Virus record (IMG/VR): IMGVR_UViG_3300046501_000132
Location: 1-64,000 of that record
From: a virus
DNA: 64,000 nucleotides
Reading direction: 5' to 3' (one strand)
Shown here: positions 4,774 to 54,306 of the stretch, piece by piece
Numbering within the stretch: the first letter of the stretch is position 1
How the letters are laid out: each line of letters begins with the position of its first letter
The notes under the pieces: model-generated
What the model was told of the DNA's origin: nothing
Databases searched by the model: none
What the model saw: only the letters and a program-made list of their open reading frames with translations
Position numbers and translations under genes: made by a program

Positions 4774-4814
4774 AACATCCATAGTATTATACTATGGATG
4801 TTCTCGAAAGTCTA
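4774..4814 (-). promoter_or_regulatory. early promoter (TAGACT-N17-TATAAT) whose -10 box lies inside a terminator-like palindrome
   Basis: Inverted repeat 4774-4786/4790-4802 with T-run on minus strand; -10 at 4786-4791; -35 at 4809-4814. Confidence 0.65.
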
Positions 4815-14143: not shown

Positions 14144-14866
14144 TCACTCAAATTCAATCTCCACGTCTTGATCCAAGTCTACTTCTTCGGGCACTTCTTC
14201 AGTCGAAGAACCAATATCAAACATAAAGCCATCAAAAGCAACTTTCTTCTCCTTGGGCTTACGGAAGGAGTCCAACCCATTCTTTTCTTCGTATTCGCGT
14301 GCTTTGGTGATAAAATCAGAACCAAGCACACCAACCGATAGACCGCCCTCATCACCATCCGAACCACCGGAAGCCGATTCCAAGTCTTCATCTTGGAATG
14401 CGTCCATACCACCCATCAACTCGAAGGACTTATACTTCAGATACTGCTCGCGCTTCTCAGCGTCAATACGGTGAGTGAAGGAACGCCAGATAATCATATT
14501 AATATATCCGAACGCACTAACCTTACCTTTCTTCTGTGACTTCTTCTCGGGGTTGAAGTTATGGATATACTTCACACAATGTAGAATCGCATCTGACTTC
14601 ATTTCATCAAGATACGAATAGCCTGAGAAGTTGTGGCGCTTACCAAGGGCTTCGGCCATATCAAAAATCGCTTCGCCTACCGCCTCGGGCAGCTTCGGAC
14701 GTTCCTTGCCTGCTGCAATATCAGCATCAAATACTTTCTTCCACTCAGACAAAATGCCGGTGAGGTGCTCATCATCAATGTAATGTCGAGGGGCACGAAC
14801 CACTGGCTTTTCTACTTCAACGAGAGTTAGACTCTCAACTTCATCATCTTCAATTAGTTCTGGCAT
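14144..14866 (-). CDS. gp55: late-transcription sigma factor
   Basis: HYID...NFSGYSYLDEMKSDAI...NFNPEK...AFGYI...KREQYLKYK, acidic C-terminal tail. Confidence 0.9.
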   Translation of the reverse strand: MPELIEDDEVESLTLVEVEKPVVRAPRHYIDDEHLTGILSEWKKVFDADIAAGKERPKLPEAVGEAIFDMAEALGKRHNFSGYSYLDEMKSDAILHCVKYIHNFNPEKKSQKKGKVSAFGYINMIIWRSFTHRIDAEKREQYLKYKSFELMGGMDAFQDEDLESASGGSDGDEGGLSVGVLGSDFITKAREYEEKNGLDSFRKPKEKKVAFDGFMFDIGSSTEEVPEEVDLDQDVEIEFE

Positions 14867-14871
14867 AACTT

Positions 14872-15363
14872 TTAAAACTTGATCACAGGAACCATCTTAA
14901 TGTCATAGGTGTCAGAAACCATCGTTCGGTTGATGTTTCTGCTACCAAGACCCGCATATTCATCAGCAAGCTCATTTCCGAAAGTACCGGCGTGACCCTT
15001 GACCCAGTTGATGGTCGCATTGCCGTGTTCATCCCAAGCGTTGAATAACGGGACTAACAGGTCAGGGTTCTTGATGCCTTCGTAATTTGAACGTTTCCAC
15101 TTGTGTCGCCAATCATTAATCGACTTGACAACATACTGGGAATCTGATCTGATTTGGATGTCCCAGTCTTTCTTATCCCGGAACATCATCATTGTGTAGA
15201 GCACGCCGTAAATTTCACCACGATTATTCGAGGACGGCGCGGGCAGGTGCCCATAGCGAATGTACTTCTTATTACCCATTAGAAAGACTGCAGACCATCC
15301 ACCAACACAATTAGGTTTCCCGTTGTCGATAGATGAACCATCAGTCCAAACATCAATCTTCAT
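14872..15363 (-). CDS. rnhA: ribonuclease HI
   Basis: WTDGS, NNRGE, SDSQY, KNPDL, WVKGHAG..GNELAD. Confidence 0.92.
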   Translation of the reverse strand: MKIDVWTDGSSIDNGKPNCVGGWSAVFLMGNKKYIRYGHLPAPSSNNRGEIYGVLYTMMMFRDKKDWDIQIRSDSQYVVKSINDWRHKWKRSNYEGIKNPDLLVPLFNAWDEHGNATINWVKGHAGTFGNELADEYAGLGSRNINRTMVSDTYDIKMVPVIKF

Positions 15364-15392
15364 ACTGCTCTGGTTCGTTTAACATAGGGTCT

Positions 15393-15421
15393 ATTATAGT
15401 ATGAGATATGGGGAAAGTAAA
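15393..15421 (-). promoter_or_regulatory. early promoter TTTACT-N17-TATAAT for the rnh-gp55-gp47 operon
   Basis: -10 at 15393-15398, -35 at 15416-15421. Confidence 0.75.
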
Positions 15422-15473
15422 GTGATAGATATGTCTTTCTATGGAATGATCATAAATTATTTTATGAAAGTGG

Positions 15474-15502
15474 TTTACTTTTCGCATATAACCAGTTATA
15501 AT
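15474..15502 (+). promoter_or_regulatory. early promoter TTTACT-N17-TATAAT pointing into an ORF-less region
   Basis: -35 at 15474-15479, -10 at 15497-15502. Confidence 0.75.
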
Positions 15503-15507
15503 ATCCG

Positions 15508-15836
15508 CCTGTAGTAGAGGATTGTCTGGACGGTAAACAGACGGTGGCGGACAATCCTAACCGGGCAACCACGGATCGAATAAAGCCCAAACCCCGCAAT
15601 CTAAGCGCAATGCTTGCATAGTCCTGGGGATTCGACTGAAGACACCCTTTCAGCGTAAGAGGACATAGCTTTCATCGGGCGGTGTAGCAACCGATGAGCC
15701 TGGCCGGCTCCGCGTACTGGACGGTTAGGAAGATGAGCCACCCACTTAATTGTGGGGGCTATCTTTCGCCTATACCTCACCACCCTGGGTAAATAGAAGA
15801 AATAAGAAACCCCTCAAGATTTCTCCTGAGGGGTTT
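15508..15836 (+). ncRNA. candidate ~330-nt structured non-coding RNA
   Basis: Own promoter and terminator; no plus-strand ORF in the track; multiple stems (15518-26/15550-58, 15555-63/15722-30, catcgg/ccgatg, aagat..cccac/gtggg..atctt). Confidence 0.55.
15807..15836. terminator. bidirectional intrinsic terminator
   Basis: aaacccctca/tgaggggttt stem between convergent transcripts. Confidence 0.75.
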
Positions 15837-15856
15837 GATATTATAGTAGATATGTG

Positions 15857-18193
15857 TTACTGCCTATCCCCTGTCAGTAACCAAGCATTAGTAGCTATCT
15901 TAATGATTGATACCGGGGAATACTGAACCCTAGTATTTGTAGTGCCTGCTGAATATAGGGTGACTCCTGATCCAGCTGATACTGTAACCTGCCCAGCTCC
16001 CATTTGTACGATGTTAATACAAGCACCGACTTGAAATGCAGCGCTCGCATTCGGAGGAATGGTTACATTGATAGCTGAAGCATTGTCCATTAGTAACCAA
16101 CCTTTATAAGTCGGTTTAGGTGCGTGAGACAAAGCTAATGTGACTGCTGTGGAAGTCGATGTCGTTACAGCATCTAATATTGGTATACTCTCTCCACTAA
16201 TCGTCTTTTGCCACTTGGCCGTATCTACATACGGCGGCGTCGTGGAAAGGTATGGAGTAGTTCCCAACAAATTGAAGATAGCAGTTGAGGATTCAGGGAA
16301 TGCTAGAACAGATGCATCAACTACGTTATTATCAACGATGTATTGATATCCGTTGAGCAAAGCGTGTAGTCCATCATCCGTCCAACCTGGAGCCTTCCAC
16401 TTACCGGAGTCTCTTGCGGATTCAAGAGCATCGGCAATTTCAAAGTACCCTGCCCATCCCGCAGGCATTGCTCTAACCGCTGCGTTATACAATAGTCTTT
16501 GAGCATTTGACGAATGTGACGTTTGATTATTCGTTGTTGCCCAAGAGTCTGTTGAAGTAGTCACTGGAGGTAGAGTTGTGCCATACCATTCCTTGCCTGG
16601 GAAGAATCCTCGGCAAGTATTCATATCATTAATAGCGGCTGATGCTGTGTTGCCGTTACGAATGTCATTAGTTCCCAAACCACAAATGACGTGAGTCAAA
16701 TATGGTAGTAGTGAACCAAAACCAGAGCCATCTTGAACAAGATTCTCTGCAGTCTTGCCGTAATTACCAGACACTGAGAATGCAATATTTTGTTCAAACA
16801 GGCTAGGCGTAATGATACCGTTTTCGGTGGTTCCCGGAATACCGCCATAGTTATTGAAACCGGCAGTCATAGAGCCGCCGACTGCAAACACCGAAGGTTT
16901 ATTGGTTTGACCAATAATGGCGCAAGGTCCATAAATATGCTCATTGAACATATTAGGAATTGTTCCGCCCATAGTTCTATTGGTCAATGTGATGCCGTAT
17001 TCAAGAGCTTCACCCATACCCGCGTCTCCGCCGTTGGTGATACGGGCATACATCAGTCCATTTGGGTGGCGTAGGAAACTACGAACCCAGAAGCCTACAC
17101 CGTCTGGAATTGCAACAGAAACACTATCAGAAGTGAGAGTTAATCCATTAGGAATCGTACCATCCGCTGAACCTCCGAATAAAACTTGAGTGAACACTCC
17201 AGCCGGATATTCAATAGACGCACTAATGGTACAATCTGCTCCTGTCGCCTCATTAAAACTGATAAAGTTGGGGAACATCAACTTCAGGCTAGAGATAGAC
17301 TCAGTGGCCTTGTGATATGTGCGACTATTAGATTGTCTATTTGACGTATAGAAGTAGAATGGGAAGATGCCGTGGGTGGCTACCAATCCTTCATAGTCCC
17401 CACCAGAAGCTGCTGTGTTTGCAAACACATACGATCCAGATGGGTATATTGTCCCCGCTGTCCAATCTCCGGCAATCCCATTTGGGCCAGTGGCTCCTGC
17501 TAGTCCAGTAGGGCCAGTTGGCCCTTGGTCTCCAACAATTCCTTTATCTCCAACTGGTCCTTTATCTCCGGTGGGGCCGGTTAGCCCTTGAATTCCTTGG
17601 TCTCCAGTTATACCCTTATCTCCAACTGGTCCTTTATCTCCAGTTGCTCCAGTTGGACCTGTTGCTCCGGTGATACCTTGAATACCTTGGTCTCCTGTCG
17701 GACCCTTATCGCCGGTGGGCCCTTTATCCCCAACAATACCTTTATCTCCGGTTGTTCCTGTTGGACCTTGATTGCCGACCGGACCTTGTCCTCCAACTGG
17801 TCCTACATCGCCAGTGGCGCCTTTATCCCCAGTCGGTCCTGTTGGACCTTGAATACCTTGGTCACCTACTGGTCCTTTATCCCCAGTCGGTCCTGTTGGA
17901 CCTTGAGGGCCAGGTTCGCCAATATTACCGGCATCGCCTTTAGGGCCGGTTGCTCCTGTTGGGCCCGTATCTCCCTTGGGGCCTTGTGGTCCCTGAATAC
18001 CTTGGATGCCTGGTACTCCTGGGTCGCCTTTCGGCCCTTGTACGCCATTGCTCAAATCAGGTAGATCCGAAAGATCAAGATAACTACCTGACTTAGCAAC
18101 TTCATGCAGGCTGTTATGTTTCTGATTAAGAGTCTTGACGTCAGCCGCAATTAATGCTGATAGTTGCTTCAACTGCTGGATGATATCTGCCAT
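15857..18193 (-). CDS. collagen-repeat fibre protein with SGNH/GDSL hydrolase domain
   Basis: Long G-X-Y tract; GGSMTAG, GLGTNDI and DDGLH SGNH blocks. Confidence 0.8.
17470..18045 (-). repeat. collagen G-X-Y coding repeat ([15 protein letters not shown]-type units)
   Basis: 9-nt periodic sequence within the fibre gene. Confidence 0.9.
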
Positions 18194-54277: not shown

Positions 54278-54306
54278 ATTATAACCCCGACTATGTGATA
54301 AGTAAA
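54278..54306 (-). promoter_or_regulatory. internal promoter of the tRNA array, TTTACT-N17-TATAAT
   Basis: -10 at 54278-54283, -35 at 54301-54306. Confidence 0.75.

Follow-up and report, generated by a model that had tools for sequence, protein, structure and literature searches.

The window analysed here, that is, the whole stretch of DNA under study, comprises the first 64 kb (64,000 nucleotides, nt) of a 170,684-bp IMG/VR virus record (IMGVR_UViG_3300046501_000132), which is estimated to be complete and belongs to a T4-like phage from soil. Between its RNase HI gene, rnh, and a convergent gene for a protein of 778 amino acids (aa), this phage carries a locus that, judged from its sequence, is a real RNA gene: a stand-alone promoter-to-terminator unit for a non-coding RNA of ~300 nt, which is a variant of a phage RNA family already catalogued but still unexplained. 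The features of the locus are the following:

14872-15363, minus strand: rnh, RNase HI (PF00075, 163 aa), heading the rnh / gp55-like / gp47 block
15393-15421, minus strand: divergent early-type promoter (TTTACT-N17-TATAAT) of the rnh / gp55-like / gp47 operon, outside the RNA
15474-15502, plus strand: promoter of the RNA gene (-35 TTTACT at 15474-79, spacer of 17 nt, -10 TATAAT at 15497-15502)
15509-15836, plus strand: predicted non-coding RNA, paralogue type 1 ('c1'), consisting of a conserved body (15509-15806) and the terminator hairpin
15807-15836, no strand assigned: G+C-rich hairpin common to the RNA gene (plus) and the convergent 778-aa gene (minus), qualifying as a terminator on the minus strand only

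The sequence-only reading of this DNA had described two back-to-back TTTACT-N17-TATAAT promoters, and a promoter scan recovered both, at 15474-15502 on the plus strand and at 15421-15393 on the minus strand, each matching 10 of the 12 consensus positions. The class to which they belong, T[AT][GT]ACT-N17-TATAAT, has four members in the window where 0.04 would be expected, an enrichment of ~100-fold, and the promoter at 15474-15502 is, as had been claimed, its sole plus-strand member in the window. The other exact members, all on the minus strand, lie at 4786-4814, 15393-15421 and 54278-54306, the last inside the tRNA cluster. The RNA is predicted to start near 15509, and a promoter of the same class was found at an equal upstream distance in six of seven other family members, the seventh locus (L020) ending inside the RNA. 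The transcribed stretch has a G+C fraction of 0.53, compared with 0.27 in the promoter spacer region and 0.48 in the genome, in agreement with the earlier description of a segment richer in GC than its flanks, and its minimum free energy has a z-score of -3.28 relative to shuffled sequences. The hairpin at 15807-15836 had been read as a bidirectional terminator, which stands for the minus strand and is in doubt for the plus strand, although the hairpin itself is conserved: a G+C-rich hairpin lies within ~25 nt 3' of all five type-1 and type-3 copies of the RNA (types defined below).

It was also verified that the region lacks a credible open reading frame (ORF). The longest frame in copy 1, the RNA under study, is a 60-aa GTG ORF on the minus strand (15601-15783); in two orthologues the frame is shortened, to 43 and 30 aa, and its sequence is unrelated. 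The substitutions between orthologues are distributed by codon position as 34/36/24, showing no periodicity, and a comparison of copies and orthologues revealed no frame common to the paralogues and no conserved ORF in the RNA.

Paralogues, orthologues and fold

The genome was searched for further copies with a DNA search, then with a more sensitive blastn and then with a covariance model of the RNA, R1. The DNA search returned a core of 72% identity at 64.5 kb and the more sensitive blastn a third copy at 153.8 kb, and R1 found exactly three copies in the 170.7-kb genome:

15505-15809, plus strand: copy 1, the studied RNA (R1, 262 bits)
64349-64683, minus strand (L007:1330-1664, minus), just past the end of the window: copy 2 (R1, 284 bits)
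153647-153958, plus strand: copy 3 (R1, 271 bits)

To find orthologues, IMG/VR and JGI metagenomes were scanned for motifs and then with R1. This yielded type-1 orthologues at L020 and L031, type-2 orthologues at L008 (on the same contig as L017) and L009, and a type-3 orthologue at L018. R1 matched two copies in a relative that is 74% complete, and contigs from a single other metagenome supplied types 1, 2 and 3. All three types have orthologues across two related uncultured phages. Members of one type are 64-78% identical at the nucleotide level, and members of different types 49-61%. Synteny and covariation near rnh, which the sequence-only reading had suggested looking for, are both present: the type-1 orthologue L031, from a 116.8-kb relative, lies as copy 1 does between rnh and a converging GDSL tail-fibre-like gene, with a promoter type and a kind of terminal hairpin as in copy 1, and the fold is kept by compensatory changes. 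The rnh on that side is divergent from the RNA and encodes a protein 75% identical to that of the studied phage. On the other hand, the RNA is absent from the relatives found through RNase H (L001-L004, RNase H identity 32-39%) and from Ralstonia phage RSP15, and a model search found no such RNA in T4. A blastn comparison with 50,697 phage records gave no match either for the studied RNA or for a true member of the Rfam family RF02932 discussed below, and no RNA-model match was obtained in L011-L014, which are high-G+C coding DNA from early pattern scans, or in L015, L016, L019 and L021-L024.

All copies share one architecture: besides helices P1 to P9, loop L1 kisses loop L2, L2 also forms a pseudoknot with the joiner that follows P3, and P3 and P5 interleave in a further pseudoknot. 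The elements in copy 1, all on the plus strand, are predicted as follows:

15518-28 / 15548-58: P1 hairpin; double changes at 7/9 pairs (alignment A3)
15529-47: loop L1, 19 nt, GACGGUAAACAGACGGUGG, closed by P1
15544-47 / 15569-72: L1-L2 kiss GUGG / CCAC; 100% paired, 2/4 pairs doubly changed
15563-66 / 15585-88: P2 hairpin GGGC / GCCC with loop L2; double changes at 4/5 pairs (A3, in which copy 1 is misaligned by one column)
15576-81 / 15630-35: L2 pseudoknot UCGAAU / AUUCGA; 100% paired, 3/6 pairs compensatory
15592-95 / 15626-29: P3 CCCC / GGGG of the core H-type pseudoknot, interleaved with P5
15604-07 / 15611-14: P4 hairpin, enclosed in the core pseudoknot
15621-25 / 15660-64: P5 GUCCU / AGGAC, interleaved with P3
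15636-41 / 15648-53: P6 hairpin, enclosed in the core pseudoknot
15672-78 / 15691-97: P7 hairpin UCAUCGG / CCGAUGA; 7/7 pairs doubly changed, loop ending in YAA
15727-71: P9 composite hairpin of AGG/CCU, AAGAU/AUCUU, AGCC/GGCU and CCCAC/GUGGG

This architecture was evaluated in alignment A3, which contains the first seven sequences and ten helices, three tertiary pairings among them. Standard pairs were found in 96.0% of the cells, compared with 36-41% when the partners were slid by 1-3 columns, and 34 of the 53 pairs changed on both sides; the observed values were reached by none of 500 shuffles. In a separate test, eight sequences were realigned to a model holding the nested helices only, and the three tertiary helices alone proved 100% paired (slid partners gave 29-45%), 7 of their 14 pairs being compensated. 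Since the tertiary helices were left out of the alignment model, this pairing test is independent of the alignment. Additionally, RNAalifold, which does not draw pseudoknots, independently selected P1, P3, P4, P6 and P7 together with the L2 pseudoknot pairing. In the kiss, types 2 and 3 carry GCAG/CUGU or GUAG/CUAU, and type 1 has altered both partners (GUGG/CCAC versus GCAG/CUGU), which represents a compensatory event, while the distal stem of P9 is 5/5 paired with five different sequences across types 1 and 3.

Most of the stems drawn in the sequence-only reading correspond to this fold, namely to P1 (aggattgtc/gacaatcct), P5 (gtcct/aggac), P6 (ctgaag/tttcag), P7 (catcgg/ccgatg) and P9, all maintained by compensatory changes. 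Its competing long-range helix, tcctaaccg/cggttagga, did not hold up: this helix is perfect in copy 1 only, with 2-5 of the 9 pairs formed in the other seven sequences, and is therefore not a conserved feature; being the sole candidate, it leaves the suggested alternative folds without a conserved basis. Two further RNAalifold pairings, 174-176/226-228 and 306-309/318-321, were discarded because they clash with covarying helices and show no compensation. A group I intron was likewise considered on account of the topology P3-(hairpin)-P5'-P3'-(hairpin)-P5'', which recalls its P3/P7 knot, and was rejected for want of an Intron_gpI match, an exon context or a P4-P6 domain. ARAGORN detected neither a tRNA nor a tmRNA here, although the string GGGGAUUCGAC is reminiscent of tmRNA.

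The conservation of sequence is concentrated outside the helices: ~60-70 nt are invariant, mainly unpaired and located in loops and joiners. In alignment A2 (five sequences covering all three paralogue types), 15 positions of L1 do not vary; this loop bears the family signature UGGNCGGUA..CAGACGG, and AGCGYAAG is also among the invariant segments. Those placed in copy 1, on the plus strand, are:

15593-15603: joiner CCCGCAAUCUA
15633-38: joiner CGACUG
15652-59: joiner AGCGUAAG
15706-12: GGCUCCG, which precedes the first 'twin box' copy in the wider family
15756-63: GGGCYAUC, within P9
15778-81: CACC of the 3' tail (UCACC[A] family-wide)

GGCUCC(G) and UCACC(A), which flank the long hairpin, are invariant in the eight T4-like members and in alignment A7. 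A pairing partner for CACC and GGCUCCG was not found, the candidates with L1, GGUGU and the P8 strand failing in type 1 or being G-U only.

As for the neighbouring genes, the rnh product is a cellular-type RNase HI, whereas T4 has a FEN-type RNase H. The window and RSP15 (Ackermannviridae), the nearest isolate by gp47 (39.8% identity), have the gene order RNase H / late sigma factor / gp47 / gp46 in common. For the 240-aa ORF at the gp55 position (14144-14866, minus strand), no Pfam match reached significance, PFU staying below threshold, although its RSP15 counterpart is annotated as a late sigma factor. On the other side of the RNA, the 778-aa protein (gene at 15857-18193, minus strand) has collagen-like G-X-Y repeats over ~200 residues and, after them, a GDSL-lipase/acylhydrolase-like domain; it probably forms a tail fibre or spike whose head is deacylating, and the related phage has a 30%-identical counterpart in the corresponding position. 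Copy 2 is divergent from a 92-aa ORF and uvsW, and the 87-aa ORF downstream of it is conserved in a related phage.

Relation to a wider phage RNA family

Searches of Rfam at E<=10 on 14800-16500 and 15500-15810 returned nothing, or terminator-like chance matches only, and the expectation of a novel RNA was borne out in that copy 1 belongs to no family at gathering score. A link to a catalogued family emerged from copy 3. RF02932, Betaproteobacteria-1, is a 120-nt model listed in Rfam as a small RNA (sRNA) of unknown function; it matched copy 3 with 21.8 bits (E 0.034) over P1 and P2 only, compared with a gathering score of 49.4 and with 103.7 bits for L045, a true member used as control. The copy-3 alignment skips the third hairpin and the 3' CGGGU of the model, in place of which lies the P3/P4/P5/P6 knot. 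By the Rfam threshold of 49.4 bits, the T4-like RNA is not a member of RF02932. Betaproteobacteria-1 is not named in the main text of a survey of 224 motifs (PMC5737381).

The L1 form GGUCGG-N-ACGGCAGC is exact in copies 2 and 3, and copy 1 has the variant GGACGG...ACGGUGGC (15529-47); where RF02932 has CUGUGGG in L2, copy 2 has ACUGUGU, copy 3 ACUAUGG and copy 1 ACCACGG, the last matched by the change in L1. A bridging pattern, GGTCGG-N-ACGGCAGC-N-CTGTGG, matched in at least 120 IMG/VR stretches, and in 41 of the 80 pattern stretches examined, L045 among them, GGCTCC follows 50-170 nt downstream. Two RNAs of this wider family, L072 and L076, align to R1 up to model position 211; in most of 33 members, the L2 loop has a perfect complement of 5-7 nt located ~30 nt downstream, which differs per phage, and the P5-like long-range helix covaries in the wider family.

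A second model, R2, was built from 18 RNAs of IMG/VR phages that are not T4-like, with no T4-like member included. R2 scored 33.2 bits on copy 2 (E 1e-8), 25.5 on copy 3, 44.2 on L018 and 37 bits on L045; on copy 1 it reached 14.2 bits (E 0.005), confined to P1-P2 (15516-15582), and copy 1 was not re-found in the whole-genome run. R2 had no match in T4 or RSP15. Together with the shared features, the R2 matches indicate that the RNA is a diverged and enlarged branch of a big phage RNA family, in which it is placed by the 5' domain and the GGCUCC and UCACC motifs; the 5' domain itself is a diverged form of Betaproteobacteria-1.

Betaproteobacteria-1 and the T4-like RNAs resemble each other in a P1 closed on a loop of the GGUCGG...ACGGCAGC kind, of which copy 1 has a variant, and in a second hairpin whose loop, starting CUGUGG in the former and altered in copy 1, pairs downstream; both are borne by phages, and L045 runs past the end of the Rfam model into GGCUCCG and UCACC, as the T4-like RNAs do. 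The T4-like RNAs differ from Betaproteobacteria-1 in being ~2.5 times the length of the model, in the P3/P5 knot, the joiner CCCGCAAUCUA and P7, in having their own promoter and terminator and three copies, and in that type 1 changed both kissing loops. A closer resemblance is seen to longer uncatalogued RNAs of ~290 nt (L072, L076, L037), which share P1/L1, P2/L2, the L2 pseudoknot, the P5-like helix, GGCUCCG, the long 3' hairpin and the UCACC tail, but lie mostly in operons of small temperate-type phages, with a single copy per stretch examined.

The RNAs of the wider family contain an additional element, the twin box (L072:1721-2013; L037:163-462, minus strand; L052:1981-2279, minus strand), in which ~10 phage-specific nt stand directly after GGCUCC. 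The same box recurs directly after UCACC, 85-92 nt downstream, with an identity of 0.87 within an RNA versus 0.33 between RNAs. For L072, neither a third copy of the box nor a complement was found in its 98%-complete 34-kb genome, and no pairing partner of the box was found within the RNA. In copy 1, 4 of 14 positions match, and the remnant in the T4-like branch, of 4-5 nt at most, agrees at 3.6/5 positions within an RNA versus 2.6/5 between RNAs, a difference that is not statistically secure.

The genes beside 27 family loci are varied (ERF, YqaJ, DnaB, DnaT-like, Rad52, terminase, methylases, HNH), which indicates that there is no dedicated partner gene, and the family is usually located in the early or replication-recombination part of the genome. 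Apart from this family, the 3' part of copy 3 (L010:3401-3442, ~153.9 kb) resembles the cyanophage RNA PhotoRC-I with 18.3 bits. The match spans GGCAGGGCC...GCCUUUCC...CACCGUCC and includes a possible alternative small hairpin, GGGC/GCCU, overlapping P9. Considering the gathering score of 45, an identity of copy 3 with PhotoRC-I was set aside as probably a chance match.

Proposed function and alternatives

The knotted compact fold, the invariant unpaired nucleotides, the stand-alone units and the core common to three copies favour a trans-acting folded RNA. With moderate confidence, it is proposed that the RNA is free, made early and acts in trans by binding a conserved macromolecule or ligand or by catalysis. 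Host RNA polymerase would make the RNA immediately after infection and release it at the 3' hairpin, and the compact folded molecule would then act through its invariant core, which may bind a conserved macromolecule of host or phage or a ligand, or may catalyse a reaction. It would not rely on long base-pairing, nor serve as a message or as a primer bound to DNA. The common core makes it probable that all three copies have one and the same function, and an identity between copies of only 50-60% would provide dosage without long, recombination-prone repeats. One of the two possibilities raised by the sequence-only reading, a novel trans-acting structured RNA, is in line with the promoter-to-terminator gene, with the complex fold under strong selection and with the lack of an Rfam match at gathering score.

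Several observations weigh against this proposal. The transcript and both of its ends are read from the sequence, the U tract behind the hairpin at 15807-15836 came out weak on the plus strand in the terminator scan, and action in trans through the fold is argued from the architecture. The link of copy 1 to the wider family is weak, coming mainly through its paralogy to copies 2 and 3. Moreover, the type-2 copies that run into a ribosome-binding site and an ORF indicate that at least type 2 can also be a leader, and the tendency of the family towards replication and recombination modules, with copy 2 at the GC-skew minimum, keeps a replication-linked role alive.

A bolder version, to which little credence is given, holds that these large RNAs may form a new class of their own, catalytic or self-assembling, which many phages deploy at the start of infection. 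The twin boxes would in that case be two equivalent reaction sites, one on each side of the 3' hairpin module, at which RNA is cleaved or ligated or strands are exchanged, and the T4-like branch would be streamlined and triplicated.

Among the alternatives to a free trans-acting RNA, a cis-acting leader is improbable. Such a leader would be a folded RNA that modifies its own polymerase or transcript and thereby controls what lies downstream, whether by antitermination similar to that of HK022 put, as a riboswitch or as a stabilising 5' domain. The type-2 copies of this genome and L008 have no terminator and run straight into a ribosome-binding site and the 87-aa ORF (MSQFIP...), in many other phages the family member lies within an operon on the coding strand, for example before the small and large terminase genes, and the invariant junction nucleotides resemble an aptamer core. 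However, what lies downstream of copy 1 and of the type-3 copies is a hairpin and, next to it, the 3' end of a gene converging on the RNA, so that these copies have nothing to regulate; in the related phage G001, a terminator further downstream takes the place of the ORF behind the type-2 copy; and the sole candidate for an alternative pairing is not conserved.

A role in priming replication, the other possibility raised by the sequence-only reading, was examined against the known origins of T4. The RNA would form a promoter-derived R-loop, trimmed by RNase H into a leading-strand primer, and the three copies would mark three origins comparable with oriF and oriG or with ColE1 RNA II. RNase H probably processes the R-loops of T4 origins, which UvsW unwinds (PMC3016281), and the positions are indeed suggestive. 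Copy 2 lies beside uvsW, at the global minimum of the cumulative GC skew and at the main coding-strand switch (64.3/64.7 kb), and the distance between oriF and uvsW in the T4 record is 0.9 kb; T4 oriG is 2.2 kb from rnh, inside the tail-fibre gene 34, and its primer RNA runs antisense to that gene, in the relative orientation also seen here. Family members elsewhere often adjoin DnaT-like, DnaB, ERF and YqaJ genes. T4 oriF(uvsY) and oriG(34), ColE1 RNA II and the studied RNA have in common a promoter-driven non-coding transcript near replication or recombination genes, in analogous positions.

The properties of the RNA point the other way, and a primer function is doubtful. T4-type origins consist of a promoter with an A+T-rich unwinding element just downstream, and their R-loop has no specific sequence requirement (PMC3016281), whereas the first 100 nt of copies 1, 2 and 3 have G+C fractions of 0.54, 0.51 and 0.49 compared with 0.48 for the genome, intramolecular helices and pseudoknots are under selection, and a hairpin terminator would release the RNA. 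The T4 origins use MotA middle promoters; the promoter of the studied RNA, with its sigma-70-like -35 TTTACT and 17-nt spacing, looks like an early one. In addition, copies 1 and 3 lie away from strand switches, T4 itself has no such RNA, and the family is found in phages with quite different replication systems. The pairing with RNase HI is no more consistent: just one of the three paralogues adjoins rnh, family members elsewhere have no rnh neighbour, and the gene present here encodes an RNase HI (PF00075) that is not an orthologue of the FEN-type rnh of T4, so the positional analogy is loose. The annotation as an origin or primer RNA coupled to RNase HI, although attractive, is unsupported and is corrected by the present analysis.

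A base-pairing regulatory sRNA, which would use its variable loops as seeds against phage or host messages, is very unlikely. It would suit the stand-alone promoter-terminator unit and the fact that the P4, P6, P7 and P9 loops differ between paralogue types, but the complements of leader and loops in the phage genome are chance-level 9-10-mers, scattered in coding regions without pattern, the loop sequences are not conserved in orthologues, the conserved parts being structural junctions, and the size and knotting are far above those of known seed-type sRNAs. The candidates of a phage csRNA survey (PMC10690425), all of 29-151 nt, could not be mapped to the studied RNA. Finally, it is scarcely conceivable that a small encoded protein accounts for the conservation, since the only frame to be put forward, the minus-strand GTG frame, is cut short with unrelated sequence in orthologues, shows even substitution across codon positions and is unshared by the paralogues.

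Significance and comparison with known systems

The family is widespread, as judged from the pattern matches, yet catalogued only as a 120-nt fragment. Its conservation resembles that of a ribozyme or aptamer core, and the family needs no neighbouring protein gene. In this context, the T4-like branch offers what is predicted to be a clean promoter-to-terminator unit for unmodified host polymerase, and its three paralogues define, by their shared positions, the ~60-70 nt that matter.

To our knowledge, bacteria and phages have very few known large RNAs with an intricate fold, among them RNase P, group I and II introns, tmRNA, OLE, GOLLD and ROOL, and each of those whose function has been solved revealed new biology. 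The studied RNA has no sequence or model similarity to GOLLD, ROOL and raiA, is of ~300 nt compared with 500-800 nt and does not lie beside the tRNA cluster. What it shares with these ornate RNAs, which are often associated with phages and have no assigned function (PMC5737381; bioRxiv 10.1101/2024.12.08.627333), is that they are large and multi-pseudoknotted, with a conservation like that of a ribozyme core, and that they are borne by phages without a dedicated protein gene.

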